Source: an uncultured Candidatus Saccharibacteria bacterium (GTDB taxonomy: Bacteria > Patescibacteriota > Minisyncoccia > Sungbacterales > HO2-52-23). Taken from it: 58,554 bases of DNA. A model generated the notes under the pieces. The model had not been told where the DNA came from. It saw only the letters and a program-made list of their open reading frames with translations, and ran no database searches. The stretch spans positions 1-58,554 of the forward strand of contig CAZPDF010000007.1 of the NCBI GenBank assembly GCA_964585475.1. Direction: 5' to 3'. Shown piece by piece: positions 4,281-58,554 of the stretch (positions within the stretch are counted from its first letter, which is position 1; the number at the start of each line of letters is the position of its first letter). A program made the position numbers and the translations under genes.

Positions 4281-4433
4281 GTCATCCTGAACCCTTCGTG
4301 AGTCATTCTGAACGAAGTCGAGCGGAGCGAGCCCTGAGCGAAGCGAAGGGGCCCTTAAAATATGGAGGAGATCCTTCGGCTGACGCCTCAGGATGACGCT
4401 TCGCGTCAGATTCTTCGCTGCGCTCAGAATGAC
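4281..4433. repeat. Two nested palindromic elements of the GTCATYCTGA...TCAGRATGAC family (intergenic)
   Basis: Forward arms at 4281 and 4302, reverse arms at 4388 and 4424. Followed by ACTCGCTACCAGTTC at 4446-4460. Confidence 0.75.
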
Positions 4434-32749: not shown

Positions 32750-35700
32750 ATGCAGGGAAAATCAGCATTCAATTTGCCGTCCCTCGAAGAGAAGATCCTC
32801 GGATTTTGGGAGGAAAATAAGATTTTTGAAAAATCTCTTGAAAGGACGAAAAAAGGGAAACGATTTGTCTTTTTTGAGGGCCCCCCTACGGCCAACGGCC
32901 TTCCGCACATCGGACATGCGCTCTCCCGTGCGTTCAAGGATATCATCCTCCGCTATAAAACCATGCGGGGTTTTTATGTTCCTCGCAAAGCAGGGTGGGA
33001 TACGCACGGGCTTCCGGTCGAGATAGAGGTTGAAAAAATACTCGGATTCAAATCCAAACGGGATATCGAAAAATACGGCATTGCTAGATTCAATCAAAAA
33101 GCTAAAGAATCGGTCTGGCGCTATAAGGACGAGTGGGAGAAATCCACGAAACGTCTGGGTTTTTGGCTGGACCTGGAACACCCCTACATTACTTACGATA
33201 CCGCTTATATTGAAACGCTTTGGTGGATTATTAAAGAAATATGGAAGAAAGGCTTGCTTTATCAGGATTTCAAAGTTATCCCTTGGTGCCCGCGCTGTCA
33301 AACCGGACTTTCTTCCCACGAAGTCGGGCTGGGTTACAAAAAGATAAAAGAGGATTCTATATATGTAAAGCTTAAGCTAAAAAACAAGACCAATGAATAT
33401 CTGCTTATTTGGACTACTACCCCTTGGACCTTGCCGGCGAATGTGGCTGTAGCCCTTAATCCGCAGACGGAATATACGAAGTATAAGATAAAAGGCGAAT
33501 ACTTATGGTCCGCCCGCACCCCTCCTTACGAAACGCCAGAAAAAATTTCGGTAGTTGAGAAGGCCTCCGGCAGATCTCTTTTGGGGATCAAGTATGAGCC
33601 GCTTTTCCGCGTGCCGAAAGAATGTTCTTTGGGCGGCGTTCCGGAATTCGCTACTATTGCCGGCGAATTTATTTCGCTTGAGGAGGGAACCGGCATGGTA
33701 CATATTGCGCCGGCTTTTGGTGACGAGGATATGGAAACGGCCAAGCGCATGTGGCGCGGCTCTTATCCGATTCTTCACACGGTGAACACTGACGGCACGA
33801 TGAAGAAGGGCGTAATTGGCGAAAAGAAATTCGTCAAAGACGCAGACAAACTCATCATCGAGGATTTGAAGCGCCGCGGCCTTCTTTACGCGGCCGAACC
33901 CTATGAGCATGATTATCCTTTCTGCTGGCGGTGTTCCACGCCCCTGCTTTATTTTGCCAAGACCGCCTGGTGGATAAAGATGCGCGACGTCAAGAAAAAA
34001 TTAATAGAAAACAACGGCCGGATCAACTGGATTCCGTCGCACTTAAAAACCGGGCGTTTCGGAGAGTTTTTGGCCGATATTCGCGATTGGGCATTCTCGC
34101 GCGAGCGCTTCTGGGGAACGCCGCTGCCTGTGTGGCGATGTGATAAGTGCGACCACCAGGAAGTAATAGGAGGGAGGGAGGAGTTGGCGCGGCGCGCGGG
34201 TCCTGCCCGCAATCGCTTTTTTTTAATGCGCCACGGCGAAGCTCTCTCGAACGTTAAAAATATAGTATCGTATGCGCCCGATGGCAAGTATCGCGAAACC
34301 CTGCGGGGTCTTGTCCAGGACGAGCGAGCCGCAAAAAAGCTGAAAAAGATAGGCATTGATTTTATTTACACTTCCGATGTTCTGCGGACCAAACAAACCG
34401 CAGAAATTGTAGGGGGAGTTCTGGGCCTAAAACCGCGTATTGATACTCGGCTCCACGAACTCAACGCGGGAGATTTGGAGGGGAGGCACCCCGATGAATA
34501 CCATAGTTATTTTTCTTTCGAGAGCGAGAAATTTACCAAGCGTCCGCCAGGCGGCGAAAATCTCACCGAGGTCCGGAAGCGGATGCTCGAAGTTGTCGAG
34601 GAACTGGAGCAGAAGCACTCCGGCAAGACCATTCTTTTGATCAGTCACGAGCATCCGCTGTGGCTGCTTTATGCCGGTTCCATCGGTTTGACGAACGAAG
34701 AAACGTTGGCTCTGCGAAGCGGCAGTCGGAGGGAGGAATTCATTCATTTTGCTGAAGTTATGGAGTTGCCATATGTCAGGTTGCCCCGAGATGAAAACGG
34801 GGAGGTGGATCTCCATCGTCCGTATGCGGATTCTTTCAAGATTCCTTGCGGCCGGTGCGACGGCTTAATGAAAAGAGTTACGGAGGTGATAGACGCTTGG
34901 TTTGATTCCGGGTCCATGCCCTTCGCCCAAGCCCACCGTCCGTTCGGGGACCATTTACCATTTACTAGTTACCAGTCCCAATATCCCGCCGACTACATTT
35001 GCGAGGGCGTTGATCAGACCCGGGGGTGGTTTTATACCTTGCTTGCGGTTGCTACGCTTCTCGGCAAGCCCTCCCCCTATAAGAATGTGATATCTCTTGG
35101 CCATGTCCTTGATAAAAGCGGCCAGAAAATGTCTAAATCTAAAGGAAACGTGGTTAACCCCGGCGAAATCATTAAAAAATACGGCGCCGATACCCTGCGC
35201 TGGTATTTCTATACAATAAATTCCCCGGGGGAACCCAAACGTTTTGATGAGAAGGACCTTATGGGTAAGCTTCGTGGGTTTTTGATGACTTTTTGGAACT
35301 GTTTTGTGCTTTTTGATACATATGTAGATAAAATTCGAAACCTGCCCCGCACCGTGCCGGAGGCCCTGGTGCGGGGTTCGAAATTCCCCGGCCTCGCCCG
35401 AGCTCTGCCGAGGGCGGGCGAAATTCGAAATTCTAAAAACGTTCTTGATAGATGGGTGCTTGCGAAGCTCGAGATACTAGAGAGAGACGTTACCATGAAA
35501 CTTGATGCGTATGATATTACCGGGGCGGGAAGAGTAATTGAGGAGTTTGTCATAAATGATTTCTCGCAGTGGTATCTGCGCAGATCCCGCAGGAGATTTC
35601 AGCGCCCAGAATCAAAAGAAATATTTGCTGAAGCCGCCGAAACTACTGCGCAGGTACTTTATCAGCTCTTGCGCATTTCCGCTCCGTTTGTTCCGTTTTT

Positions 35701-36388
35701 GGCGGAAACAATTTATCAGGAGCTTAGGAAGAAACTGAAATTGAAAGAAACGAGTATTCATCTTGTTGGGTGGCCAATTCTCTTGTGTGTCATTCCGAGG
35801 CGAAAGCCGAGGAATCTCACGAGATCCTTCGCCCCGTATAGCTCCCCGCGGGTGATTATACGGGGCTTCGCTCCGCTCAGGATGACGGCGGGGGAGAAGA
35901 AAATTTTGGGCAACATGGAGGAAGTTAGAAAGATTGTCGCGGACGCGTTGAGGTTGCGTGCGGCCGCCGAAATCAAGGTTCGTCAGCCGCTCGCTTCGCT
36001 ACAAATTCGAAATCCAAAATTCGAAATCCGAAACGAAAAGGAGCTGTTAGATCTGATCCGAGACGAAGTGAATGTTAAAAAAGTTGCGTTCGGAGTTGAG
36101 TTTAAGTTGGAGACGACCTTAACGCCGGAATTAAAAGAAGAGGGAGTTGCGCGCGAGATCATCCGTAATATTCAGGAGATGCGTCGTGGCGGCGGTTTTC
36201 ACCCGGCCGATTTGATTTTCATCCAAATCGCGGGAAGCGAGGCGACCGGGACGGTTATCGAGAGATGGCAGCAGTTTATTCAAAAAGAAACAAATTCGCG
36301 AAAAGTTATCGTTGGCGGGAAAAAAATTTTTAAGATCGAGCGCGAAATAATTATTGACGGGTTGCAACTTTGGATAGGAATTCGGTAG
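32750..36388 (+). CDS. ileS: Isoleucine--tRNA ligase carrying an inserted histidine-phosphatase domain and repeat insertions
   Basis: PPTANGLPHIGHA (HIGH), KMSKSKGN, WCPRCQT, and CDKC..CGRC zinc knuckles. 1212 aa. Confidence 0.9.
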   Translation: MQGKSAFNLPSLEEKILGFWEENKIFEKSLERTKKGKRFVFFEGPPTANGLPHIGHALSRAFKDIILRYKTMRGFYVPRKAGWDTHGLPVEIEVEKILGFKSKRDIEKYGIARFNQKAKESVWRYKDEWEKSTKRLGFWLDLEHPYITYDTAYIETLWWIIKEIWKKGLLYQDFKVIPWCPRCQTGLSSHEVGLGYKKIKEDSIYVKLKLKNKTNEYLLIWTTTPWTLPANVAVALNPQTEYTKYKIKGEYLWSARTPPYETPEKISVVEKASGRSLLGIKYEPLFRVPKECSLGGVPEFATIAGEFISLEEGTGMVHIAPAFGDEDMETAKRMWRGSYPILHTVNTDGTMKKGVIGEKKFVKDADKLIIEDLKRRGLLYAAEPYEHDYPFCWRCSTPLLYFAKTAWWIKMRDVKKKLIENNGRINWIPSHLKTGRFGEFLADIRDWAFSRERFWGTPLPVWRCDKCDHQEVIGGREELARRAGPARNRFFLMRHGEALSNVKNIVSYAPDGKYRETLRGLVQDERAAKKLKKIGIDFIYTSDVLRTKQTAEIVGGVLGLKPRIDTRLHELNAGDLEGRHPDEYHSYFSFESEKFTKRPPGGENLTEVRKRMLEVVEELEQKHSGKTILLISHEHPLWLLYAGSIGLTNEETLALRSGSRREEFIHFAEVMELPYVRLPRDENGEVDLHRPYADSFKIPCGRCDGLMKRVTEVIDAWFDSGSMPFAQAHRPFGDHLPFTSYQSQYPADYICEGVDQTRGWFYTLLAVATLLGKPSPYKNVISLGHVLDKSGQKMSKSKGNVVNPGEIIKKYGADTLRWYFYTINSPGEPKRFDEKDLMGKLRGFLMTFWNCFVLFDTYVDKIRNLPRTVPEALVRGSKFPGLARALPRAGEIRNSKNVLDRWVLAKLEILERDVTMKLDAYDITGAGRVIEEFVINDFSQWYLRRSRRRFQRPESKEIFAEAAETTAQVLYQLLRISAPFVPFLAETIYQELRKKLKLKETSIHLVGWPILLCVIPRRKPRNLTRSFAPYSSPRVIIRGFAPLRMTAGEKKILGNMEEVRKIVADALRLRAAAEIKVRQPLASLQIRNPKFEIRNEKELLDLIRDEVNVKKVAFGVEFKLETTLTPELKEEGVAREIIRNIQEMRRGGGFHPADLIFIQIAGSEATGTVIERWQQFIQKETNSRKVIVGGKKIFKIEREIIIDGLQLWIGIR
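35789..35886. repeat. GTCATTCCGA...TCAGGATGAC palindromic element inside ileS
   Basis: Translated as VIPRRKPRNLTRSFAPYSSPRVIIRGFAPLRMT, between SIHLVGWP and the MEEVRKIV helix. Confidence 0.75.
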
Positions 36389-36465: not shown

Positions 36466-36548
36466 GTTTGAACGCGATTTACCCAGTTAGAAATTTATTT
36501 CAGTAAAACCCCTAACTATTTAAGAGACCGTAGAAGAACCCATCTTTA

Positions 36549-36644
36549 GTCATCCTGAACAAAGTGAAGGATCTCTTGGAACAGCACGGATAGATTCTTC
36601 GCTGCGTTCAGAATGACATTCCTGGGGTTACTCGCTACCAGTTC
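36549..36644. repeat. GTCATCCTGA...TCAGAATGAC element plus ACTCGCTACCAGTTC tail (intergenic)
   Basis: Arms at 36549 and 36608. Tail at 36630-36644. Confidence 0.75.
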
Positions 36645-36669
36645 TACTGCACCTTATTTCCAACGGGGT

Positions 36670-39286: not shown

Positions 39287-39287
39287 T

Positions 39288-39412
39288 CCCGTTAGAAGTC
39301 TTGGGCATAAAAATTTATGGAAATTTTTATGTCTTAGCAACGGCATGGCGTTTCTAAGAGTCGGATTTTCTCTCGTTTGGTTCGAGCGGGAAATATCTGA
39401 CTTTCTAACGGG
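39288..39412. repeat. CCCGTTAGAAGTC...GACTTTCTAACGGG hairpin element filling the atpF-atpH spacer
   Basis: The termini match the element family at 56-57.5 kb. The element sits between the TGA at 39284-39286 and the ATG at 39413. Confidence 0.7.
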
Positions 39413-39925
39413 ATGAAAACTACGCGAGATATCGAAATAACGGCCATTTTAAGAGCCGTCCGCACCAAGGAGGACAGGGAGTTGTTTTTAGGGATAGCCG
39501 AGGATTTACAAGGCGTGTTTTACCGGCTCCAGGTCGGGGAATTCGATAAGACTGAGACATTGGCGGGTCGACTGCCGGAACGTCTGGCGCGCCCCTTTTT
39601 AGCGGCGCGGGAAGTCGCTCAATACCGGCAAAACCCCGGCGTCTTCAAGAAATTTTTGGAGAATCTGAGATCCGCCTTGGACAGTATGCGGATTCTGCGC
39701 CTGGATTTGGCGTTTGATCCGACCGACGAGGCAGTCGAAAAAATACATGCGTGGGTGTCTCGGGAAGTAGGCGAGGGGATACTGCTTGATATTGATATCG
39801 ATAAAACGATTCTGGGCGGCGCGCGAATCATGTTTGAAGGCAAATATCAGGAATATACGCTTGAAAAAATGATCGAGTCGGTTCTCGCGCGCGAGCGGGA
39901 GGAAATTTTACGATTAATTAAATAG
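39413..39925 (+). CDS. atpH: ATP synthase delta (OSCP)-like subunit
   Basis: Operon position and C-terminal GGARIMFEGKYQEYTLEKMIESV. Confidence 0.5.
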   Translation: MKTTRDIEITAILRAVRTKEDRELFLGIAEDLQGVFYRLQVGEFDKTETLAGRLPERLARPFLAAREVAQYRQNPGVFKKFLENLRSALDSMRILRLDLAFDPTDEAVEKIHAWVSREVGEGILLDIDIDKTILGGARIMFEGKYQEYTLEKMIESVLAREREEILRLIK

Positions 39926-43807: not shown

Positions 43808-43980
43808 GAACTGGTAGCGAGTATATTCCTAAATGTCATTCTGAGCGCAGCGAAGAATCCCCTCATTTACGGCAAGAGCTCCTTCACGGAGTTTACCCTG
43901 AGATTCTTCACTTCGTTCAGAATGACTCACGAAGGGCTCAGGACGACAACGGGGAAAAGCGCTTTACTCGCCACCAGTTC
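43808..43980. repeat. Composite palindromic element with outer GAACTGGTAGCGAGT / ACTCGCCACCAGTTC repeats
   Basis: Inner arms GTCATTCTGA at 43835, TCAGAATGAC at 43917 and TCAGGACGAC at 43937. Lies between atpD and atpC. Confidence 0.75.
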
Positions 43981-50200: not shown

Positions 50201-51302
50201 GGGAGATCTGGTGAGTCTCGACGCCTCCAGTCCTGTTTTTGTCACAAAATCATCGCAAGCGATCACTTCGCCAATCATTGGTGTGGTTTCTACCAAGCCG
50301 GGCTTACTTCTCGGAGGATACGGCATAGAACTCTTTGAAGACGCAAGAAAGGTTCCTGTTGCGCTCTCCGGCCGGGTTCCGGTGAAGATTTCGGATGAGG
50401 GCGGCGCGGTAAAAATCGGAGATCGAATCGGGCTTTCCTCGCTTGCCGGAGTGGGGCTTAAGGCGACGACTTCGGGCGTTACCGTCGGTATCGCGCTTGA
50501 AAATTTTGGCCCGGCAAATTCAACCACAAGCGTTCTTCTTTCCTACGGCCGGACGGTAAAAACCGGAAAGGTTTTGGTTTTCGTGAATCTGGGGTATTCG
50601 AAGCTGGACGACGGAGTAACCAGTAACCAGTTACTAGTTACCAGTTCAACGACAAACGGCTGGTCGGTTGACCAGACCTCCGGCAAGGTCAGCGTCGGAT
50701 TTTACGGAGATATAGACATGCATGGGAATTCAATCGTGAATGTCGCAAAAATTGTTTCGCAAAACGGCAAATGGCGGATTGACGACGACGGGACCTTGAT
50801 TGCGACCCGCGTTGTTGCGGATGAGGTAACAACGCAGAAACTGACTGTCGGCTCGCCGACAAACCCGACCGGAATCACGCTTTTTGGCGAAGACGGCCTG
50901 CCTTACTGCGTTAAAGTCGGGACGGGAGGAGTGGTGAGGGCCGAGCAGGGAGAATGTGTGGCCTCCGTACCGTCTGTTATTCCAAGCGGTTCTGATGTCA
51001 TCCTGAGCGGTAGCGAAGGATCTCTAGATCCTTCGGCTGATGCCTCAGGACGACCCGCGGGGTCGGATTCTTCGGCTACTTCGTCGCCTCAGAATGACGT
51101 GGGAGGGGCGACCGCTTCCAGCACCACGACCGTAATCTCTGAAACTTCAACCACGACTCCGACGGTCGCCACGGAACCTACGCCTTCACCCGAACCTCCG
51201 CCGGCGCCAGCTCCGGAATCTTCTCCCGCGCCCGAACCCACGCCTACAGCCACTGCATCAAGCACTCCCATAACCAGTATCGAGCTGACCCCCGCGACTT
51301 AA
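44283..51302 (+). CDS. Giant (2339 aa) tail-fibre-like surface protein with LVIVD-type repeats
   Basis: N-terminal TM helix. About 10 copies of the G(R)LGIGTTSPxxxLxVxG motif. Eight or more GRYAYVVDxGSxDLKVIDVSNPSAP repeats (about 47800-48650). Pro/Thr/Ser-rich C-terminal tail. Confidence 0.8.
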   Translation: MSFSSKKPQKDGVTRRSLWLLGCFLAALVLTAGLIGVWSAEASSLEDAQDLTVLSLSSSRPLFAAFLDDAGTFIRSLFRRLIPSRAVTADLDGQAIRQKNSGLLAPSTPRSTVRINVPSEFKTEVTVRGLLRGTDIDLGSGTIIASNVIYGVTAGDGIVITGGQRPAVSSAFWRRRGDVIVTRDPGLSLEVTGGVTIGTTTGSRLTFAGPSVTRYLGTNLTQYNNFSTTTILNSAANAWSIATSATATPILSIDTRGAGSVKITGSLGIGTTSLGAVLAVQQQDASTTAFRLIGLSERLGRLFEIIDASSTPRLVIDGSGRLGIGTTSPSSLLAVSGSSTFTGPLSASASAYLATAGGSVGVGTVNPTSLLSVRGTLDVSLDAKFGTSPLIPVISCGGSGVLETDGEGRITCGSDAVGGGGVGGSGATGQVTFWASSGSLTGNSNLIFDSSTGRLGIGTSSPAQSLSVGGNTYIVGGLGVGVATTTAGAFEVSGQASIGGALSLAGNLAVSGSATSTFISGLSVGLLNISSTTASSTFASGINLNNGCFAINGGCVAGGATVTGAGASGQVTFWTGVSSISGDNAFFWDSSAGRLGLGTTSPNSLLNLYGTSTLATFQSFINSTSAFRILNAASSSVFTVDTSNGSTTISGVFNANGVGTSTFGGGLSANLLNVRSTSASSTFGNGIRLLNGCFELTDGTCAVSSAGAAASSGWTDDGTIVRLNQAGDQVSIGNSSPLSPAVLSIYATTSTAVPLIAQAAANQTADLVRIQNSGGANLIVADYQGRVSIGTSSAVSLFNLYGTSTLATFQSFINSTSAFRILNAASSSVFTVDTSNGSTTISGVFNANGVGTSTFGGGLSANLLNVRSTSASSTFGNGIILSSGCFRTVSGDCAATGSTTIDQGTANRVTYYSTASTLDSANYLTTDITNSRLGIGTTTPGTTLGVTGDAVITGVLTMRQFNATSTSATSTIQGFLDVLGTGSNSTSTYASNLWVKGGLQIGTGSVLIGNNFLNFNQSASTSLAGAVNAWNIGGANLLSIDAFNNRLGLATQTPASLLSIAGTSTIALAGSSGLGNIGLLNIQQNSIGTPAMIYGRRFTDDWVTTAATNTATSTFFLRFDDTRNQGVSNLITGTATTSGSLLFGVDVRGALTINHGSSSAVVVGKLGIGSLPQSIVVSGRYAYVVDQGSADLKVIDVSNPSAPVTVGSLGIGDLPTSIAVSGRYAYVVDYGSDDFKVIDVSNPSAPVRVGSLDIGTTPWSIAVSGRYAYVVDQVSVDLKVIDVSNPSAPVRVGSLGIGANPTSIAVSGRYAYVVDSGSDDLKVIDVSNPSAPVTVGTLGIGNLPTSIAVSGRYAYVVDRGSQDLRVIDVSNPSAPVRVGSLGIGANPTSIAVSGRYAYVVDSGSDDLKVIDVSNPSAPVTVGTLGIGDLPTSIAVSGRYAYVLDSGSDDLKVIDVSGAEVNALMAHSLEAGSLQVRDDITARGLNLSGGLTVGPNGLLSQGTVGISLPLATTTFISTSTSILTLTHATGTFAGTGLLMDFATSSATTSPTRGAGTFTGNFLEFKNRGISRFVVDKLGRLAIGTTTPAWSLQVASNTQTYLTLTANDASANLKHWTLSSQGGNFYISSSSDAYATSSTARLTLLSSGLVGVATSSPSTNFSVLGNIYATGGLGVGRSTTTAGVLDVAGSATSTFVGNFGINMTGGCYALNGSCVGGGGGVSGSGATNKVTYWDTSSTISSNALFSWDNSNVRFGVGTTSPGARLSVAGGGSASGMSNAILYSLGNFIYASSSTSTIPNLAPYAFSIATSTTAQPIFSIDTRGARGTSSFLGGFSIDDGAVLYDTATGTLSVDALNTGPMSFDTDAGMVSWIDMPSSTTTAGIAMSYSAMVDSTQVLTIYATTTASGNITFGSVGIGTTTPGAALDVLGALCVDDATPACANAARAPGTIYAVATTITGIDVAEQYPTTDTSLEAGDLVSLDASSPVFVTKSSQAITSPIIGVVSTKPGLLLGGYGIELFEDARKVPVALSGRVPVKISDEGGAVKIGDRIGLSSLAGVGLKATTSGVTVGIALENFGPANSTTSVLLSYGRTVKTGKVLVFVNLGYSKLDDGVTSNQLLVTSSTTNGWSVDQTSGKVSVGFYGDIDMHGNSIVNVAKIVSQNGKWRIDDDGTLIATRVVADEVTTQKLTVGSPTNPTGITLFGEDGLPYCVKVGTGGVVRAEQGECVASVPSVIPSGSDVILSGSEGSLDPSADASGRPAGSDSSATSSPQNDVGGATASSTTTVISETSTTTPTVATEPTPSPEPPPAPAPESSPAPEPTPTATASSTPITSIELTPAT
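50997..51098. repeat. GTCATCCTGA...TCAGAATGAC element inside the giant gene (102 nt, in frame)
   Basis: Arms at 50997, 51045 and 51089. Translated as VILSGSEGSLDPSADASGRPAGSDSSATSSPQND. Confidence 0.75.
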
Positions 51303-51348: not shown

Positions 51349-51873
51349 ATGGCAACAGTCCAAAGATTCGAGGATTTAATCGCCTGGCAAAAAGCGCGGG
51401 AACTTACCCGGGAAATATACAAAAGTTTAAGCGGTGAAACGTTTAAACGTTTAAACCTGCCGCCGGATTACGGTTTTATAGATCAAATCCGGCGAGCTTC
51501 GGTTTCCGTGATGTCTAATATCGCGGAAGGATTTGAACGAGGCACGCGCGCCGAGTTAATCAACTATTTATTTATCGCCAAGGGCTCCTGCGGAGAAGTG
51601 CGTGCGCAACTTTACGTTGCGTTGGACGCGGGATACTTAAACGTTGAAATGTTTAAACGTTTAATTGGTTTAAGCGAGGACTGCTCGGTTTTGATTTATC
51701 GTTTCATTCAGAGCATCAAGCAATCGGGGATCGCAGGACACCAATTCAAAAAAGAAAAATCCAAATCCCAACTTGAGCGCGAAGAATTCGACCAGTATCT
51801 TAAAAAGCATCTCGAAGAAGTCAAAACAAATCCTAGCGCCAAATTCGATATATCGCGTTTCGAAAGAAAATGA
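51349..51873 (+). CDS. Four-helix-bundle protein (23S rRNA intervening-sequence protein / Avd-like family)
   Basis: [58 protein letters not shown]. Confidence 0.75.
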
Positions 51874-54017
51874 ACTTTCAACTTGTCATTTTTAAGTATT
51901 TAAATATCGCGCTTATTGCGTTCGGATTTTTCTATGCGATGAGCGCCCACGCTGGCGCCATCTTCCACGCCCCGAATTACCTCGGCCTGACCTCGGGCCT
52001 GGTCGGCTACTGGTCTTTTGACGGCCCGGATGTGGCAGGAGTGCTTGCGTATGATCGCTCTTCAAGTTACGCCACCGGAACGCTCACGAACGGACCGAGG
52101 CGAGTTGTCGGCAGAATCGGACAGGCGCTGGAGTTTACGAAAGCCACCACGTCGGGCGTAAGTATGGGAGATGCGACTACGCTTAACAGTCTTACGAGTC
52201 TAACGTACTCTGCCTGGATCTACCCACGAAGTTACGGCAACATTGTTCCGGATGAGACGGGAGCGATATTAACCAAAGGGGATAATACCAACCGCGTCAA
52301 CAGAGCTTTTAAGTTAGACGATGCAACCGTGGTAGGAAGTCTGGAGTTCTTTATAAATTGTAGTGGTAACCCGCTCGATGCGTTTTCAGTAGCGAATAGC
52401 GTCACTCTCAATTCGTGGCATCATGTTTCCGTAACCTGGACCGGCGGTACAACTCGGGCAAGCGTGACATTTTATGTTGATGGAGTCCCGGTAGCGCGCG
52501 ATGGTACTGCCGGTACTGATTGTAGCCTCGGCATAGGAGACGATTCCCCGGGCCGTACCTCTCATATCGGAGGGAACACGACAATAAGTCCTACTTCCGG
52601 CGCTTTTAACGGCCTCATCGACGACGTCCGCATATATAACCGTGCCCTTTCCCCGGACGAAATCAAACGGCTCTACCGGATAGGCGGGACTCTGAAGCTC
52701 GGCAAGCCAGCTGGCGTCGGCCTCACCGACGGCCTGGTCGGCCATTGGACTTTTGATGAAGACGACATGGCCGGGGCCCTCGCTTATGACCGTTCTACCA
52801 GTTTCGCCACCGGAACGCTCACCAACGGCCCGGTGCGAGTGGCCGGCAGAATCGGGCAAGCGCTGAATTTTGACGGGGGGGATGATTATGTAGACATCGG
52901 GACGCCAGCAAGTTTGAGTCTCTCGGGACCCATGTCGGTGTGTGCGTGGATTAACGGGAAAAATTTAGGTGGCAGTAATGCGATATTCAGTAATGAGTTT
53001 GGAGGCGGCTCTCAATACACATTTGAAACATTTACCAGTGGTGCAAATTTACACTTCTATTGGATTGGCGCTGGTGGGCTTGAGGAATTTTTCACTGGTG
53101 ACATTCTTACCGACAATAGGTGGTATCACACCTGTGCCGTACGCATCAGCGATAGCAATGTCAAGATTTACCTTGATGCCGTTGAGCAGTCTGTCACCAA
53201 TTCTGGTGCCTCAGGTATTCCCGCCTCGGCAGCAGATACAGCGATTGGTAGAGAAGGGTTGCTAAATGCGGGCTACTTCCGCGGCTCTATCGACGACGTC
53301 CGCATCTACAACCGCGCTCTTTCCGCCGACGAAATCAAGCGGCTCTATAGGATCGGCGGGACTCTGAAACTCGGCAAGCCGTCCAATATCGGGCTAACTT
53401 CCGGCTTAGTAGGCCACTGGACTTTTGATGAAGATGATATGGCCGGAGTCCTGGCTTACGACAAGTCCACCAGTTTCGCCACCGGAACGCTCACAAACGG
53501 TCCTGTGCGTAAAATAGGCAGAATCGGGCAGGCGCTGAATTTTGACGGGGTGGATGATCGTGTCCCTGTGGTAACTGATTCTATAGATACTGGCACAATT
53601 ACGCTTTGCGGATGGATAAATCCGCGAGTTACCAGTTCTGCTACAGAGAAAGCACTTATGAGTAACGCAAGGTTCTTTTTCGGAGCCTCTAACGTAAATA
53701 GCCGTCTTAACCTTTATAGCAATAGTGCACTAGATCCGCCGCTACAATCCGCGGTGGATTCAATCGTCGCAAATGCGTGGCAACATATATGTGCCGTGCG
53801 GAATAGTGGGACGAATGGCCCGGCGTCGATCTACATAAACGGCGTACTCAATGCCTCCGGAAACTCTGGTACTCCCGTGTCAGGACTCGGTGCACTTAAC
53901 ATAGGCGATGATGGGTTTGGAGATTACTTTTTCAACGGCCTCATCGACGACGTTAGGGTGTATAATCGGGCTCTATCCCCTGATGAGGTACGTCGTCTGT
54001 ATAACATGGGTCGTTAA
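51870..54017 (+). CDS. Secreted protein with three LamG (concanavalin A-like) modules
   Basis: Signal peptide. Three copies of GLVGYW/HWTFD .. GQAL.F .. WH.. [25 protein letters not shown] overlap with the upstream gene. Confidence 0.75.
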
Positions 54018-54056: not shown

Positions 54057-54728
54057 ATGGTCATAAAAGTATCAAAAAATCCATACGGATACAGGAATCT
54101 ATTGGTTTACGAGAAAGCCGAGGAATTGCAGAAAGCATGCTCCGAGCTGACCCATCAATTCCCCAAGACAAAGACGCTCGTCGCCTTGGGCGATCAGATG
54201 GATCGCTCGGCACGCTCGACTAAACAGAATATTGCCGAGGGATGGAAGCGGAATTTGACCCACGAGTATTATCAGTTTCTCGGCTACTCGATCGCCTCCA
54301 ATGCGGAGCTTGAGGAGGATTGTAACGATATTATTAAGGGAATGTACCCGGAGTTAATGGGTATAAAGGGGATAATGGGGGAAAGGGGAGAAGGGGTAAA
54401 CGAAAGAGGAGAAATGGGGATTGACGAGGTTGAACGGATCCCTTTTTATCCCATTAATCCCCATTTGCCTCCCATGGTTGGGCTGAAACTCCGGGCCAAG
54501 GAACTTAACTTTCTGCTTGACCGTCTGCAAAAGTCGCTCGCGCAAAAAATGGCAAGCGAAGGAACCCTGTCCGAGCGGGACAAACTCCAGAGAGCCCGCG
54601 AGAAGGAAAAAGAACGCTATAAACAGGATTTTGAACTGATGGACGCCATAAGAAAAAGCGATCCCATAGCTTTTGAAAAACATTATAAAAGCGAATACGA
54701 ACGTTTGAAGAAAATATTAAATACTTAA
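54057..54728 (+). CDS. Four-helix-bundle (Avd-like) protein with an internal word-hairpin insertion and C-terminal extension
   Basis: YRNLLVYEKAEELQKA..QMDRSARSTKQNIAEGWKR..FLGYSIASNAELEED. Confidence 0.65.
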   Translation: MVIKVSKNPYGYRNLLVYEKAEELQKACSELTHQFPKTKTLVALGDQMDRSARSTKQNIAEGWKRNLTHEYYQFLGYSIASNAELEEDCNDIIKGMYPELMGIKGIMGERGEGVNERGEMGIDEVERIPFYPINPHLPPMVGLKLRAKELNFLLDRLQKSLAQKMASEGTLSERDKLQRAREKEKERYKQDFELMDAIRKSDPIAFEKHYKSEYERLKKILNT

Positions 54729-55495: not shown

Positions 55496-55879
55496 ATGAA
55501 TAACGAAGCGGGAAAAATCCGAGAATTTACGGATTTAAAAGTGTGGCAAGAAGGCCACCGCCTTGTCATAGCAATTTATGCCGTAACTAAAAAGTTTCCC
55601 AAAGAAGAAATTTATTCACTGATAGACCAAATGCGAAGGGCGGTATCCTCAATAACCTCAAATATAGCAGAGGGTTTTGGCCGACATACCATGAAAGAAA
55701 AAATTCAATTCTATTATCATGCGCAAGGGTCCCTTACCGAACTGAAGAATCAGCTTTTTATCGCCCGCGATGTCGGATATCTTACGGCCGGCGACTTTGA
55801 GACGTTGATGAAAAGTGTTGAAGATACTCACCGATTACTGCAGGGTCTTATCACAAAATCAAAATCCTTTTTAAAATAA
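55496..55879 (+). CDS. Four-helix-bundle protein (Avd-like / 23S IVS protein family)
   Basis: FTDLKVWQEGHRLVIAIY..QMRRAVSSITSNIAEGFGR..YHAQGSLTELKNQLFIARD. Confidence 0.8.
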   Translation: MNNEAGKIREFTDLKVWQEGHRLVIAIYAVTKKFPKEEIYSLIDQMRRAVSSITSNIAEGFGRHTMKEKIQFYYHAQGSLTELKNQLFIARDVGYLTAGDFETLMKSVEDTHRLLQGLITKSKSFLK

Positions 55880-55922
55880 AGGGAATATATTCTTAAATCA
55901 TGAATCTTGAATCGTGTATCAA

Positions 55923-56067
55923 ATGAAACAGAACATCATTACAACCTCATTCCTGGTTTTCGCATTTATCTTCATTTTCAGCGGTGAAGCTAGCGCCGGT
56001 GCTCTCATCAACCGCGCGCCCACATCTCTGGGTTTGATTTCGGGTTTGGTCGGCTACTGGTCTTTTT
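55923..56067 (+). pseudogene. Decapitated LamG gene 5' cassette 1 (signal peptide to GLVGYWSF)
   Basis: [30 protein letters not shown], then interrupted by the hairpin element at 56068. Confidence 0.65.
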
Positions 56068-56167
56068 ACCCCGTTAGAGGCAAGACGCCAAGCCCCATTA
56101 CTGCAAGCAGTAACGGGGCGAGGGCGTCTGCCGATTCGCCTTTAGCGAATAGGGCCTCTAACGGGGT
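56068..56167. repeat. 100-nt hairpin element, CCCCGTTAGAGGC / GCCTCTAACGGGG termini
   Basis: Perfect 13-bp termini at 56069-56081 / 56154-56166, plus inner stems AGACGCC/GGCGTCT and ATTCGC/GCGAAT. Confidence 0.8.
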
Positions 56168-56219
56168 TGACGGCCCGCCCCGGTTAAAACAAGTTTTAAC
56201 GGGGTAAAGATATGGCTTG

Positions 56220-56322
56220 CCCCGTTAGAGCCACAATTGTCATGATTTATAATTATGTAATACAGAGTAAAAAAGACGGACGATGCCATGCTGGTTGCAC
56301 ACGCTTTCTGGCTCTAACGGGG
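56220..56322. mobile_element. Deletion-derivative element retaining only the first ~24 codons of a GIY-YIG gene
   Basis: CCCCGTTAGAGCC (56220-56232) and GGCTCTAACGGGG (56310-56322) are perfect inverted repeats. The interior starts ATG at 56242, MIYNYVIQSKKDGR. Confidence 0.6.
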
Positions 56323-56565
56323 CGAGGAAACAGAAAATCCGCCGCGTTATACGACGGACTTTCCGATGGACCCGGGGAGACTTGCACTCCCTTCGCTGGG
56401 TACCAACGCCAGCATGCTACTATATGCAACACAGGCCCGGATCCGTTGGCAATTATACAACAGAAAAGGCCCCTTTGAAAGGACCTTTTCTGGGTACCCA
56501 GCTTTGACCCGTGATGTATAGAGTCATACCGGCGTTGTAGCTCCATTGTAGCAGATGTAAAAACT

Positions 56566-56841
56566 ATGTCAAGCGTTTTACCCACAACCAAAAAACAACT
56601 GTATTTCTACTGCATTTCCATTGTATTTCTATTGAATTTCATGGTATTTCCTTATATTGCCAACGCCGGCGCTGTGATTAACAAGGCACCCGCTTCTCTC
56701 GGTCTGATTTCCGGCCTTGCCCCGTTAGAAGTAAGTCGCCCAAGGCGACTGCCGATGCGTTTATTCACCCCGTTAGGGACGATGTCTCTAACGGGGCGGG
56801 TCGGACTTCTAACGGGGCTGGTCGGCTACTGGCCCCGTTAG
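56566..56841 (+). pseudogene. Decapitated LamG 5' cassette 2, carrying an in-frame hairpin element
   Basis: ..AGAVINKAPASLGLISGL[34-aa insertion]LVGYW, then the left end of the GIY-YIG element. Confidence 0.6.
56719..56818. repeat. 100-nt hairpin element with a nested smaller hairpin
   Basis: CCCCGTTAGAAGT (56720-56732) / ACTTCTAACGGGG (56805-56817), perfect. Inner pair 56768-56796. Confidence 0.8.
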
Positions 56842-57232
56842 AGCCGCACTTATTATGTTTTACACATATTTATTACAAAGTCTCAAAGACAAACGGTGGT
56901 ACACCGGCTGTACGAATGATTTGCGCAAGCGTTTTAAGGAACACAACGAAAATAAAGTTCCGGCTACTAGAGGGCGGGGTCCTTTTGAGCTGATCTACTA
57001 TGAAGCTTGCATGAATGCGCAGGATGCTTATGCTCGCCCCGTTAGAAGTCCGGCAATGCCCAATGATTTTCAGTACCATGTTAAGCGAAGCGGCTTCGCC
57101 TTACACAATTTAGGTGGAAACACACTAACTTTGACTTCTAACGGGGCAAGAGAAAAATACTTGAAATCTGTTTCGGGAAAAAGATATCTCAAAAATCGTT
57201 TGAAACGTTTCCTAAATTTGTCTCTAACGGGG
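56833..57232 (+). mobile_element. Candidate autonomous element: inverted repeats bracketing a GIY-YIG nuclease gene (400 bp)
   Basis: CCCCGTTAGAGCC (56833-56845) versus GTCTCTAACGGGG (57220-57232), 12 of 13 complementary. The GIY-YIG ORF starts 10 nt inside the left end. Confidence 0.55.
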
Positions 57233-57466
57233 GCGGGAATTTTTCTTATTATATTTATCTTGACTATAGATACAGCTAGGGCGGGAGCCGTCATTAACAA
57301 AGCACCGATATCATTGGGGTTGATATCTGGACTAGTGGGCTACTGGTCTTTTTACCCCGTTAGAGGCAAGACGCCAAGCCCCATTACTGCAAGCAGTAAC
57401 GGGGCGAGGGCGTCTGCCGCGCCTTCGGCGCGAGCCTCTAACGGGGTTGACGGCCCGCCCCATTAG
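56855..57466 (+). CDS. Small GIY-YIG nuclease (COG2827-like) with a 38-codon hairpin insertion, reading through into LamG cassette 3
   Basis: MFYTYLLQSLKDKRWYTGCTNDLRKRFKEHN..PFELIYYEAC..AYA[insertion]REKYLKSVSGKRYLKNRL. No stop codon before the right repeat. Confidence 0.55.
   Translation: MFYTYLLQSLKDKRWYTGCTNDLRKRFKEHNENKVPATRGRGPFELIYYEACMNAQDAYARPVRSPAMPNDFQYHVKRSGFALHNLGGNTLTLTSNGAREKYLKSVSGKRYLKNRLKRFLNLSLTGAGIFLIIFILTIDTARAGAVINKAPISLGLISGLVGYWSFYPVRGKTPSPITASSNGARASAAPSARASNGVDGPPH
57036..57147. repeat. Hairpin element nested inside the GIY-YIG ORF
   Basis: CCCCGTTAGAAGTC (57037-57050) / GACTTCTAACGGGG (57133-57146), perfect 14 bp. Confidence 0.8.
57354..57447. repeat. Second copy of the 56068-56167 element in LamG cassette 3
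   Basis: 57338-57419 is identical by eye to 56052-56133. The apical hairpin differs but still pairs (CGCGCC/GGCGCG). Confidence 0.8.
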
Positions 57467-57559
57467 ATAAAAACACATAAGTTATGAAACAGGAGTATGT
57501 GATAAAATAAAAAAAATGTAATCCGTTAGCAAAATCTTATATGTTTTTATCTAACGGGG
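57458..57559. repeat. Hairpin element, CCCCATTAGATAAAAACA / TGTTTTTATCTAACGGGG
   Basis: Inserted at the same GACGGCCCG|CCCC junction as the 27-nt version at 56178-56204. Confidence 0.65.
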
Positions 57560-57800
57560 TAAAGATATGGCGGGAACCAAAAACCACGCATTTCTGCGTG
57601 GTTCCGGGGGTCTAAACCTAGTGCTTATACCCAGCTTTATCACCTATTATAAGTATATTCCTTATTTAAAATCCTGTCAATAGCATAGCACAATTTTGAA
57701 GCGGTGGAGGTGCGGGGATTTGCACCCCGTAGACCCTGGGTGATAAAGCCGGATCCGGCACTAAGCCACCCCCACCGCAGGTTCACAGTAACAAAAAGCC

Positions 57801-58554
57801 ATGAAAATTAAAAATTGCAAATTGAAAATTATACTGCTGGTATTTGCCTTTTGCATTTTAGGGCAAACTAATTTTGCCCAGGCCGGAGCCGTGATAAACA
57901 AGGCACCCGTTTCTCTCGGCCTGATTTCCGGCCTTGTCGGCTACTGGACTTTTGACGGCCCGGATGTGGCAGGAGTGCTTGCGTATGATCGCTCTTCAAG
58001 TTACGCCACCGGAACGCTCACGAACGGACCGAGGCGAGTTGTCGGCAGAATCGGACAGGCGCTGGAGTTTAGCGGTGCAAATGCTTGTGTAAATATTGGC
58101 CAGCAGTCTTCCCTTATGTCCCTAACGTCCCCAATTTCTTTTTCGTTATGGATTAGACCGAATAGCCTCTCCAGTAGTGGGAAGATACTTAATTTATTTC
58201 CAAACGACAGTAATTACAAGGAGAATGTTCTCATCACTAGTAATTTATTATATATGGGAGGACCAACCAATAAAGATGTGGTGAATCTTGCAGCGTCCGG
58301 CAACCCAATTTCGAGGGGAGAGTGGAACCATATAGCGTACACACGCGACGATTCTAGCAGGAGTGTATACATTAATGGGGTAAGATACGCAACCACCACC
58401 CCAGACTTTTTTGCAGGATCTAGCGGTTTCTATATTGGCGCTGGAGGTTCAACCTGTACCGACAGTCCATATGCTGGTTCCATCGACGACGTCCGCATAT
58501 ACAACCGCGCCCTCTCCGCCGATGAAATCAAACGGCTCTACAAAAGATCGGAAG
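57801..58554 (+). CDS. LamG-domain secreted protein (5' part; runs off the window)
   Basis: Absent from the ORF track because no stop is reached. MKIKNCKLKIILLVFAF..AGAVINKAPVSLGLISGLVGYWTFDG...[22 protein letters not shown]. Open to the window end. Confidence 0.75.
   Translation, partial: MKIKNCKLKIILLVFAFCILGQTNFAQAGAVINKAPVSLGLISGLVGYWTFDGPDVAGVLAYDRSSSYATGTLTNGPRRVVGRIGQALEFSGANACVNIGQQSSLMSLTSPISFSLWIRPNSLSSSGKILNLFPNDSNYKENVLITSNLLYMGGPTNKDVVNLAASGNPISRGEWNHIAYTRDDSSRSVYINGVRYATTTPDFFAGSSGFYIGAGGSTCTDSPYAGSIDDVRIYNRALSADEIKRLYKRSE

Follow-up and report, generated by a model that had tools for sequence, protein, structure and literature searches.

A GIY-YIG nuclease gene and gene-less hairpins with shared inverted termini: a repeat family and possibly a new, exceptionally small class of mobile DNA

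What has entered the 5′ ends of three truncated LamG genes in the window (the whole 58,554-nt stretch of DNA analysed here), and does the small GIY-YIG gene lying among the insertions have a part in moving them? A sequence-only reading had proposed an autonomous GIY-YIG-encoding element with MITE-like derivatives. The underlying observation is real and the reading was largely right; the proposal is supported, none of the refuting conditions named in that reading having been borne out, and one deletion derivative of the coding form is directly visible at 56220–56322.

Stacked and nested units in the window

The 9-mer CCCCGTTAG/CTAACGGGG occurs in 15 exact copies in the 58,554-nt window (both strands), all of them within 56069–57559. 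The expected exact count of CCCCGTTAG is 0.45, and no more than three copies were seen in any of 100 shuffles of the window. Four further copies with one mismatch lie in the same region, at 56110, 56196, 57396 and 57458. The count recovered every one of the 18 positions listed previously; the copy at 57458 (CCCCATTAG) had been overlooked. As claimed, the 9-mers pair into inverted termini, with 80–100% complementarity over 14–21 nt:

56068–81 / 56154–67: inverted termini, 14 nt, 100% complementary
56216–36 / 56306–26: inverted termini, 21 nt, 90% complementary
56719–32 / 56805–18: inverted termini, 14 nt, 100% complementary
57033–50 / 57133–50: inverted termini, 18 nt, 94% complementary
57354–67 / 57434–47: inverted termini, 14 nt, 100% complementary
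56833–52 / 57213–32: inverted termini around the ORF starting at 56855, 20 nt, 80% complementary

The last pair does enclose a whole GIY-YIG ORF, one that matches PF01541 (see below). As single strands, the units of the window fold far better than shuffled sequences (z −3.5 to −9.7). There are about ten copies in the window, most of them stacked and nested in the three LamG 5′ ends; the interval first assigned to the family, 55914–57800, proved too narrow, since two copies lie outside it. The units, the LamG fragments and the empty reference sites are as follows:

36482..36668: degenerate copy, 187 nt, CCCAGTTAGAAAT...ATTTCCAACGGGG, TTTA on both sides, 3′ of the IleRS gene
39287..39413: hairpin unit, 127 nt, variant ends TCCC...GGGA, between two ATP-synthase-operon genes
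51990..52030, + strand: 715-aa LamG gene (51870–54017), empty site used as reference
55914..56068, + strand: LamG 5′ fragment 1, signal peptide to GLVGYWSF
56069..56166: hairpin unit E1, 98 nt, 13–14 bp closing stem, two arms
56178..56204: mini-hairpin E2, 27 nt, CCCCGGTTAAAACAAGTTTTAACGGGG
56220..56322, + strand: unit E3, 103 nt, in-frame internal deletion derivative of the GIY-YIG unit
56566..56719, + strand: LamG 5′ fragment 2, signal peptide to LISGL
56720..56817: hairpin unit E4, 98 nt, with a nested 29-nt mini-hairpin at 56768–56796
56833..57232, + strand: GIY-YIG unit E5, 400 bp (286 bp of its own and a nested insertion of 114 bp)
57037..57146: hairpin unit E6, 110 nt, nested in the GIY-YIG ORF of E5
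57233..57354, + strand: LamG 5′ fragment 3, begins mid signal peptide and runs to GLVGYWSF
57355..57446: hairpin unit E7, 92 nt, duplicated copy of E1
57458..57559: hairpin unit E8, 102 nt, A+T-rich, 24-nt ends CCCCATTAGATAAAAACACATAAG / CTTATATGTTTTTATCTAACGGGG
57925..57965, + strand: intact LamG gene starting at 57801, empty site used as reference, ...TCCGGCCTTGTCGGCTACTGGACTTTTGACGGCCCGG

Comparison with the intact LamG paralogues gives the size of each insertion. Those at 56069 and 56720 each add 98 + 4 = 102 nt, the net gain reported earlier for two elements, and that at 57355 adds 92 + 4 = 96 nt. E1 is flanked by TTTA and TTGA where the intact paralogues have a single TTGA; E4 is flanked by CTTG and CTGG where the intact paralogue has a single CTTG. 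All insertions into coding sequence in the window are multiples of 3 and free of stop codons: the ORF of LamG fragment 1 (55914..) continues through E1 to a stop at 56207, and E4 is translated in frame as APLEV...LLTG. One arm of E1 is an inner mini-hairpin, CCCCATTAC...GTAACGGGG, at 56093–56118. E1 and E7 do not represent two events; they are a single insertion copied by a segmental duplication (55988–56133 versus 57274–57419, 86% identical), with one arm replaced, CGCGCC/GGCGCG in E7 instead of ATTCGC/GCGAAT in E1. The site of E2 in the duplicated block corresponds to that of the 102-nt unit at 57458–57559, and E2 is probably a remnant left by internal deletion. The degenerate copy at 36482..36668 contains a nested hairpin from a second repeat family.

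Both ends of the GIY-YIG unit and its leader survive in E3, along with 20 codons from the N terminus and 7 from the C terminus; these 27 codons read MIYNYVIQSKKDGRCHAGCT followed by RFLALTG, and E3 is 71% identical to 56829–56913. One pair of termini had been taken to enclose only the first ~24 codons of a homologous ORF; in E3 the 20 N-terminal codons are joined in frame to the 7 C-terminal ones. In E5, the ORF starts at 56855 and the right end makes up its final codons, TCT CTA ACG GGG. With no stop codon after them, the frame continues into LamG fragment 3. E6 lies directly before the conserved Glu of REKYLKS, flanked by CTCG and CAAG, and adds a net 114 nt in frame; uninterrupted homologues, which serve as empty sites for E6, read DA.AREKYLKS. 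With its nested insertion and missing stop, the GIY-YIG copy of the window is broken and probably inactive.

At 39287..39413 the TGA stop of the upstream gene is preserved, and the downstream ATG is remade from the last A of the unit plus TG. The orthologous empty site is an ATGA gene overlap in a related ATP-synthase operon (L272). The comparison of empty with filled sites that had been suggested is thus available at the paralogous LamG sites and at this orthologous junction, and on these alignments they show precise insertion. No empty site from the same population was found, all contigs with the exact flanking proteins having the 39287 insertion, and a search for exact matches to the empty site as predicted returned nothing.

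Related hairpins and their target sites

If the repeats were peculiar to this locus, as the sequence-only reading allowed, mobility would be hard to argue. However, hairpins with the same ends at 68–98 nt spacing were found at at least 120 loci in a one-genome-per-species collection, of which an estimated ~17 are chance matches. They span more than ten phyla (e.g. Patescibacteria, Omnitrophota, Desulfobacterota, Planctomycetota, Nitrospirota, Cloacimonadota and Spirochaetia). Identical 4-bp direct flanks, mostly TNNA and less often CNNG, bound 67 of 124 hairpin units, against 10.1 on average, and never more than 21, when the flanks were shuffled 2000 times; identity of inverted flanks was not enriched among these units. 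Position −5 is a purine and position +5 a pyrimidine in ~75%. We conclude that insertion duplicates 4 bp of target in an R-TNNA-Y context. Such duplications place the insertion at the level of DNA.

Favoured sites include the ATGA stop/start overlaps of operon genes, where the stop of the upstream gene survives and the last base of the element serves to remake the start of the downstream gene as GTG, or as ATG with the T...A end variant. The ends vary in a compensatory manner (TCCC...GGGA, TCAC...GTGA). Most copies are intergenic, with in-frame residence in coding sequence in only 4 of 125 units outside the window. Gene-less derivatives of 26–190 bp consist of the two ends only and fold as hairpins or as Y-shaped or cloverleaf-like structures. 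Their interiors are nearly all mutually unrelated (99 singletons in 111 clusters), and five units hold a whole tRNA gene between the same ends. Among the matches listed, a GIY-YIG gene lies within the fetched 8 kb at only 3 of 120 hairpin loci, and action in trans must therefore be assumed; all three of these homologues are themselves bracketed by the ends.

Several described entities were set aside. For a self-splicing intron or described structured RNA, a possibility raised at the outset, no Rfam family matched the region at its gathering score (two chance-level matches at E ≤ 1), and the 4-bp duplications also speak against it. Integron attC sites have the core order RYYYAAC...GTTRRRY, are accompanied by an integron integrase and show no target duplication; here the ends run GTTAGAG...CTCTAAC, the opposite order on both strands, 4-bp duplications are present and no tyrosine recombinase was found in the window. 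PHROGs yielded no matching family. In viral contigs the one pattern searched, that of the hairpin units, had no match. We found no published description of the element.

The GIY-YIG gene and its full-length copies

The coding form, 275–281 bp long, comprises an 11-bp terminal inverted repeat (CCCCGTTAGAG), a leader of ~10 nt and one 86-codon GIY-YIG gene. Its last four codons, Ser-Leu-Thr-Gly (SLTG), are the right inverted repeat, and the stop is supplied by the flanking T(A/G)A. Units of 267–291 bp with the same ends and a GIY-YIG gene occur in at least 120 metagenome contigs. Among the matches listed, an open frame of 86–94 aa reaches the last base in ~100 of 116 unique units, and TGA or TAA directly follows the element in 71 of 115 full-length units. 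We recovered 4737 GIY-YIG homologues; among the best 120, ~86 have the exact ...LTG terminus and ~25 begin with M(N/S)PVRE, that is, a flanking ATG plus the translated left repeat.

With the in-frame 114-nt insertion removed, the 56855 ORF matches PF01541 at 62.9 bits (cut-off 22.6; E = 3.5e-17), bearing out its identification as GIY-YIG. Across 50 homologues and 94 metagenome ORFs, conservation is complete or at least 90% at Y3, Y5, Y16-T17-G18, R24/R26, H30-N31, E62 and N76. The window copy has the catalytic residues, but 38 inserted residues split its ORF just before the Glu. Median dN/dS among 94 intact ORFs was 0.12 (computable in 108 of 400 sampled pairs), and the protein is under purifying selection. 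The AlphaFold2 model (pLDDT 93.2; E2-9, E15-20, H23-31, E44-52, H55-66, H68-85) has the predicted β-β-α-β-α-α core of the GIY-YIG fold. In sequence the protein matches 1ZG2 (E = 2.2e-9); in structure comparison 1ZG2 (UPF0213 BH0048) again came first, followed by Slx1 chains (TM 0.59–0.65 over the query), with I-TevI weaker. On sequence and modelled structure, we conclude that the protein is UPF0213/Slx1-like. Profile and model both indicate that its 86 aa are a catalytic domain only, with no separate DNA-binding domain. Protein identity across phyla is 70–81%, which points to horizontal spread.

The flanks of the full-length units are less regular than those of the hairpins. Identical 4-bp flanks were found, among the matches listed, in 18 of 115 units (16 of 64 unique contexts; shuffle mean 4.1), i.e. 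far fewer clean duplications than among hairpins, yet above shuffles. Perfect duplications surround full units at unrelated sites, e.g. CTGG in L188 and L225 and TGAA in L146. The flanks are also asymmetric (left TTTA/TTCA, right TGAA/TAAA), which counts against the explanation we favour below. One multicopy gene family is present on 29 of 120 full-length contigs among the matches listed, and a 279-bp subfamily occupies the same position in its C-terminal region (19 copies read), with mosaic flanks and variable adjacent deletions; such a pattern resembles homing or recombination more than it does transposition at random. A composite of LamG leader, hairpin, LVGY(W/L), GIY unit and second LamG leader recurs in the divergent contig L209, and 32 extra hairpin units lie on 594 kb of full-unit contigs.

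Possible mobilisation and relation to known systems

The marks of a terminal-inverted-repeat transposon are present: shared ends, a 4-bp duplication (weaker around full-length units) and empty sites. We consider it probable, with room for doubt, that the units form a very small DNA transposon-like family with a coding GIY-YIG form and hairpins, its copies being moved by the nuclease; that the GIY-YIG nuclease itself mobilises the elements we infer. Expressed by read-through from host genes, the nuclease would recognise the paired ends or the stem-flank junction, as Slx1 does branched DNA, and would make 4-nt staggered cuts at both element junctions and in the target, the junctions themselves being R-TNNA-Y or a close variant. 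The pieces would then be joined by host ligase or by repair, a cut-and-paste in the manner of restriction and ligation; repair of breaks between paralogous genes would add homing-like spread, and hairpin copies would be moved in trans. A bolder form, which we advance tentatively and at somewhat under even odds, makes the 86-residue nuclease the sole element-encoded protein needed. The element would then resemble a mobile restriction fragment: cuts at R^TNNA^Y would leave sticky ends for the host to ligate into an identically cut target, tRNA genes would be carried as cargo, and the element would have evolved to enter ATGA junctions leaving both genes intact. Against nuclease-driven movement, GIY-YIG enzymes are hydrolytic nucleases, and we know of no strand-transfer chemistry among them; nor does this protein of 86 residues have a DNA-binding domain apart from the catalytic one.

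That the joining is not explained by GIY-YIG chemistry alone is one argument for a conventional transposase encoded elsewhere, the GIY-YIG gene being a frequent passenger like the tRNA genes; the five tRNA-carrying units indicate that unrelated cargo is possible, hairpin interiors are mostly unrelated, and the gene is near few hairpin loci. However, no adjacent pair of these ends 300–4000 bp apart was found in ~1.6 Mb (fetched loci and window), no transposase family was seen to recur near units, and none of the 49 window ORFs matched a Pfam transposase. Thousands of copies with the C-terminus fused to the end, a stop outside and no space for a promoter would be unexpected of a passenger, as would strong purifying selection across phyla. 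We regard this alternative as unlikely. The gene might instead be a free-standing homing endonuclease spreading by break repair at homologous sites (paralogous LamG leaders, the multicopy gene family, other hairpin copies), with the duplications at hairpins a separate process. The shared position of the 279-bp subfamily with its mosaic flanks and deletions, the L209 composite, the scarcity of clean duplications around full-length units and a weak match to an NCBIfam group I intron endonuclease model speak for it; like T4 Seg and the I-TevI family, the element is a selfish gene between or inside host genes, and its flank mosaicism is consistent with co-conversion. Those enzymes, however, depend on a distinct DNA-binding domain and a single long site, and terminal repeats and target duplications are both absent from them, whereas the element protein is a bare catalytic domain found at many unrelated sites (one subfamily shares a site), full units have perfect duplications at unrelated sites, and hairpins with the same ends clearly insert at non-homologous ones. 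We consider homing alone quite improbable. A further notion, in which the host maintains the hairpins as structural or regulatory repeats (terminators, or stems acting in mRNA processing or stability; compare REP and RAYT), with the nuclease a domesticated single-copy partner and nothing now mobile, draws on the strong stems (z down to −9.7), the stop and start codons preserved at operon junctions and the compensatory changes that maintain end complementarity. It is very hard to credit: target duplications and empty sites reveal insertion events, interiors are not conserved, genes are interrupted by copies (three LamG genes and that of the nuclease itself among them), and the protein is 70–81% identical across phyla.

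Nuclease-driven transposition would set the family apart from known systems. REP/REPIN sequences with RAYT are likewise short palindromic non-coding units scattered genome-wide, with a small nuclease-type protein gene flanked by the same repeats in inverted orientation. RAYT, however, is an HUH/Y1 single-strand transposase, and REPs lack target duplications and are usually lineage-specific and vertically inherited; with a GIY-YIG protein, a 4-bp duplication, ends that overlap the ORF and one 11-bp end across phyla, the element is not a member. Bacterial MITEs (Correia/NEMIS, RUP, ERIC, BOX) share a length of 100–150 bp, terminal inverted repeats and target duplications, and some are intragenic or are deletion derivatives of an autonomous element. 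Their known partners are DDE insertion sequences of ~1 kb or more and their duplications typically TA or longer, whereas the putative partner here is ~280 bp with a GIY-YIG domain only; a 2024 review of bacterial MITEs mentions no endonuclease partner (PMC10969869). Rickettsia palindromic elements are in-frame, stop-free palindromes in genes, as are the four coding insertions of the window, but they occur only in Rickettsia, no enzyme is known for them, and in-frame residence of the present element is exceptional outside the window. Penelope-like retroelements are the mobile elements known to use a GIY-YIG endonuclease for integration, and they make short target duplications; they belong to eukaryotes, however, and move by way of RNA with an encoded reverse transcriptase, whereas the present element has no reverse transcriptase. 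In fold, catalytic motifs and best sequence and structure matches, the protein is closest to UPF0213/COG2827 (YhbQ, BH0048) and the nuclease domain of Slx1, an enzyme that cleaves branched and stem-loop DNA at the junction. The model requires this kind of activity, although Slx1 also has a RING domain and a partner, Slx4. We know of no UPF0213/COG2827/Slx1 protein that lies inside an inverted-repeat-bounded unit or is mobile.

The family may represent a new class of mobile DNA, one of exceptionally small size. If the nuclease mobilises it, it would be a new mechanistic class beside DDE, HUH, serine, tyrosine and Cas1 transposons, and at ~275–281 bp the smallest autonomous mobile element known (IS200 is ~700 bp). 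A large clade of small 'UPF0213 / excinuclease C-like' proteins, annotated across thousands of uncultured genomes, would then have a function that can be tested, and a nuclease of 86 residues with a cis site of 11 bp could serve as a compact tool. The elements split genes, insert in frame, rearrange LamG surface-protein arrays and occupy essential operons, and they appear to cross phylum boundaries; in these respects they are relevant to horizontal transfer and to how genomes evolve among Patescibacteria and their neighbours. Even if the enzyme is a different one, cross-phylum repeats with defined ends and a target preference would aid annotation, and the family accounts for spurious protein extensions, N-terminal MNPVRE... 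and C-terminal ...SLTG.

Inverted-repeat units of the LamG region

The motif CCCCGTTAG or its complement is present in 15 exact copies in the 58.5-kb window (0.45 expected), all within 56069-57559, where there are also four copies with one mismatch. The inverted pairs that the sequence-only reading had drawn between these copies were all recovered by a repeat finder, with arms of 14-24 nt that are 80-100% complementary. Folding bore out the proposed hairpins: as single strands, the units are far more stable than shuffled controls (z -3.5 to -9.7), each with a closing stem of 11-14 bp and two or three internal arms. We distinguish gene-less hairpin units of ~100 bp from full-length units, which have the same ends and carry an 86-codon GIY-YIG gene. 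The family had been placed at one interval; that interval stands, with further copies at 39287-39413 and 36482-36668, the latter degenerate.

Composition of the pile-up
55914-57800: three truncated LamG 5′ ends, one broken GIY-YIG unit and one deletion derivative
55914-57800, remainder: five hairpin units and several mini-hairpins, with a nesting depth of two

The pair 56833/57232 does bracket a GIY-YIG ORF, as had been claimed. The ORF starts at 56855 and, once a nested in-frame insertion of 114 nt (a 110-nt unit plus 4 nt) is taken out, matches PF01541 as a typical small GIY-YIG protein (62.9 bits, E=3.5e-17). The shorter bracketed relative at 56220-56322 is indeed a remnant of such a gene: an in-frame internal deletion has left 20 N-terminal codons and the C-terminal RFLALTG, with both ends kept. 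Aligned against the window's two intact LamG genes, two of the hairpin units there add 98+4 nt each, which accounts for the net 102 nt that two elements were said to add to the LamG leader, and a third adds 92+4 nt. The three insertion points in the conserved leader are ...LISGL/VGYW/SF/DGP... (marked by slashes). The units at 56069 and 57355 are both present, as copies of a single insertion within a duplicated block (86% identity) rather than two insertions. At the junction of the GIY-YIG unit, ...GYW of one LamG leader is fused to the middle of the signal peptide of another. All 4 coding-sequence insertions at this locus are stop-free multiples of three. Hairpin units in read-through ORFs elsewhere are rare (4/125), and we rejected a general in-frame bias, (length + 4) mod 3 being nearly flat (47/39/39 over 125 units).

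A divergent metagenome contig (L209, 1049-1405) carries the same composite as window 56720-57350: a LamG leader, a hairpin unit ending ...LLTG, 15 nt for LVGY(L/W), a GIY-YIG unit and, at the 3′ end, the middle of another LamG signal peptide. The arrangement is thus either inherited or spreading as a block. Three four-helix-bundle genes also lie in the LamG region (51349-51873, 54057-54728 and 55496-55879), with matches to PF05635 ('23S rRNA-intervening sequence protein') and a weak Avd-like match; those at 51349-51873 and 55496-55879 each immediately precede a LamG gene or fragment. A PF05635-type gene follows a Dehalococcoidia GIY-YIG unit as well (L128 2287-2661). No reverse transcriptase was seen in the window. 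Just upstream of an intact LamG gene is a G+C-rich tRNA-like stretch (57706-57773, - strand), which gave no ARAGORN call and an Rfam mascRNA match at chance level (E=0.4).

Target-site duplication and spread of the ends

In a scan of one genome per species for CCCCGTTAGA-N68-98-TCTAACGGGG, the ends were found at at least 120 loci, of which an estimated ~17 are chance matches; as expected for the mobile family proposed earlier, the motif is not confined to the window. Shuffles and database scans together exclude a chance motif. Hosts among the matches listed are nearly all uncultured, and include many Patescibacteria classes (Saccharibacteria among them), Omnitrophota, Desulfobacterota, Planctomycetota (with Brocadia), Nitrospirota, Cloacimonadota, Stahlbacteria, WOR-3, Spirochaetia and a few proteobacterial bins. 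The host of the window is itself a Patescibacterium, whose nearest named AtpA relatives are Candidatus Sungbacteria (~62-66% identity). Only the ~11-bp ends are conserved, the hairpin interiors being mostly unrelated (99 singletons among 111 clusters of the matches listed).

Identical direct 4-bp flanks border 67 of the 124 hairpin units among the matches listed; with right flanks shuffled in 2000 trials, the mean was 10.1 and the maximum 21. The duplicated 4-mers are mainly TNNA (TAAA/TTTA 26, TGAA/TTCA 15, TCAA/TTGA 11), CNNG being rarer, and the target context is purine-TNNA-pyrimidine. ATGA stop/start overlaps are the site of many insertions. Inverted-flank identity was not enriched in hairpin units (7 versus 13 expected), and we rejected the reading of the flanks as an extension of the inverted repeat. 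We conclude that the units are insertions.

Empty counterparts of filled sites, which a mobile element should leave among relatives, were found in the LamG paralogues of the window and at an orthologous ATGA junction. In a relative with 70% AtpA identity, two ATP-synthase-operon genes overlap as ...ACAATATGAAAGAAC..., and the filled site at 39287 reads ...GCCATGA[TCCC...127 nt...GGGA]TGAAAAC..., so that the upstream stop is kept and the downstream ATG is reformed from the last base of the element. An exact DNA search of metagenomes for the empty site predicted at 39287 gave no match, and contigs found through the two flanking proteins of this copy were all filled, with no empty allele in the same population.

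At another locus (L146 1-3260), a GIY-YIG unit with TGAA duplications stands between two ORFs that both match PF00391 (PEP-utilising enzyme); the two ORFs may be halves, both still open, of a single gene split at an internal ATGAA. Four identical 94-nt copies in the MAG DX4.bin27 all have the same flanks and are part of a larger repeat. They are therefore not independent insertions, and we rejected a recent burst. Units with the same ends also enclose complete tRNA genes (Thr-CGT, Val-GAC, Ala-CGC twice and Val-TAC) at five loci: L033 4971-5060, L043 431-539, L066 1140-1248, L068 1366-1476 and L090 5057-5166. Their hosts are Saccharibacteria, Spirochaetia, Parcubacteria and a Bdellovibrionales bin, and the two Ala-CGC units group together across phyla. 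Rather than duplications, these units have hybrid flanks, with T..A on one side and C..G on the other.

The GIY-YIG gene and its protein

GIY-YIG homologues inside hairpin-seeded loci were bracketed by the same ends in 3/3 cases. A protein search returned 4737 homologues, of which the best 120, at 70-81% identity, are mostly 86 or 94 aa long. The C-terminus is exactly ...LTG in ~86 of these best 120, usually ...KRFLSLTG; ...SLTG is encoded by TCT CTA ACG GGG, the right end of the element. The 94-aa homologues start M(N/S)PVRE, which corresponds to a flanking ATG (usually ATGAA) plus the translated left end. Contexts read directly agree (L128 and L129 from Dehalococcoidia, L047 from Omnitrophota, L146 and L136), with units of 275-281 bp. 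The pattern CCCCGTTAGAG-N244-270-TCTCTAACGGGG for full-length units was found on at least 120 metagenome contigs. Among the matches listed there are 116 unique units, with a modal length of 279 bp; in ~100 of the 116 the reading frame, 86-94 codons long, stays open through the final base, and the next three bases after the element are TGA or TAA in 71/115. End variants are paired, both sides having changed together (TCCC...GGGA and TCAC...GTGA), and 594 kb of contigs bearing full units hold 32 extra small units with the same ends. We conclude that the element includes the GIY-YIG gene.

Codon comparisons among 94 intact ORFs indicate that the protein is maintained, the median dN/dS of 0.12 (108 of 400 sampled pairs computable) reflecting purifying constraint; the GIY, YIG, Arg, Glu and Asn positions show no or almost no variation. 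Over the last ~ten codons, conservation of third positions is unusually high, so DNA-level constraint extends past the 11-bp end. AlphaFold2 predicts the fold with confidence (pLDDT 93). Among solved structures, the model lies closest to UPF0213 protein BH0048 and to the nuclease domain of the junction-specific endonuclease Slx1, with I-TevI more distant; the protein has no DNA-binding domain. Recognised prokaryotic transposases fall into the DDE, HUH, serine, tyrosine and Cas1 classes, and GIY-YIG nucleases are known from homing endonucleases, restriction enzymes, UvrC, Slx1 and eukaryotic Penelope-like retroelements. A full-text search, with incomplete coverage of subscription journals, returned no description of these ends or of a prokaryotic GIY-YIG-encoding inverted-repeat element, in agreement with the sequence-only reading. 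A 2024 review of prokaryotic MITEs makes no mention of endonuclease partners (PMC10969869), and a GIY-YIG protein is listed among genes predicted to have been transferred from Patescibacteria to other bacteria (PMC12455944).

Within a multicopy gene family, one 279-bp GIY-YIG subfamily occupies a single position in the C-terminal region, ...FKVVFDAIRQLM...KKRIGF / VEEPKVPY... (L159, L172, L175, L176, L183, L186, L192, L197, L198, L200, L214, L217, L227, L238, L259 and L264). There, the same left flank recurs with five or more distinct right flanks, equivalent to deletions of 0 to ~35 nt.

Mechanism, rival explanations and a second repeat family

The family has conserved ends, a 4-bp duplication, a target preference, and coding and non-coding forms with common ends. 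We propose that the nuclease would recognise the paired ends or the stem-flank junction and make 4-nt staggered cuts, with joining by host functions. The first base of the element is C or T and its last is G or A, so each junction with the flank has the form purine-TNNA-pyrimidine, and a nuclease of this loose, symmetric specificity would cut both junctions and the target alike. The presence of this sequence at all junctions is consistent with such cutting, as are the C...G and T...A end variants. The element has no promoter space, so expression must rely on host read-through, which fits the preference for operon junctions.

Full-length units fit the cutting model less cleanly. Identical 4-bp flanks are present in 18/115 among the matches listed (16/64 in unique contexts), which is above chance, and the ORF-oriented flanks are asymmetric, mostly TTTA/TTCA on the left and TGAA/TAAA on the right; the need for a stop codon explains the right flank and does not cover the left. 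In the multicopy-family subfamily, the deletion derivative at 56220-56322 and the nested hairpin unit at 57037-57146, the two flank 4-mers resemble inverted copies with one transition mismatch, and there are adjacent deletions of variable length. Among full-length units, flanks that are inverted with one G.T/A.C mismatch number 31 versus 15.7, an excess that comes partly from non-independent copies. These features suggest that copies recombine or undergo homing-like repair with one another, or that donor flanks are carried over. Together with the scarcity of clean duplications, they keep alive the explanations that the GIY-YIG gene is a free-standing homing gene, or a passenger between ends moved by another enzyme. 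Site-specific homing into the LamG GLVGYW motif was rejected, since L209 alone has the arrangement of the window. As to another enzyme, adjacent forward-reverse end pairs in ~1.6 Mb of fetched loci and the window are spaced <60, 60-130, 131-260 (4 cases) or 261-300 bp, with none 300-4000 bp apart. All-against-all ORF clustering of 240 loci revealed no recurring transposase; the families that recur are the multicopy gene family hosting the 279-bp subfamily (29 contigs), LamG proteins (15 loci) and housekeeping genes. Among 49 window ORFs, none has a transposase or recombinase domain in Pfam.

Other identities were considered. A structured RNA or intron, an alternative named in the sequence-only reading, was rejected, as Rfam gave no family for the region at gathering score, nor at E <= 1 beyond chance level. 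An integron attC was rejected on the reversed order of the core sites and the presence of duplications. A phage origin was rejected on a search of 2.9 million viral contigs, which covered the hairpin-unit pattern alone and gave no match, and on the lack of any PHROGs family match.

A second, unrelated palindromic family, GTCATYCTGARC...GYTCAGRATGAC, has 14 matches in the window at <=1 mismatch versus 0.63 expected.

Second palindromic family
4281-4433: copies of the family
31598-31661: copies of the family
35875-35886: copies of the family
36549-36617: copies of the family
43835-43947: copies of the family
50997-51098: copies of the family

Copies are in frame within an ArgRS ORF and a 2339-aa LVIVD-repeat ORF, and one is nested in the degenerate 36482-36668 unit. 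The 1212-aa isoleucyl-tRNA synthetase-like ORF at 32750-36388 has a histidine-phosphatase domain (PF00300, residues 491-652) inserted in its class I catalytic domain.
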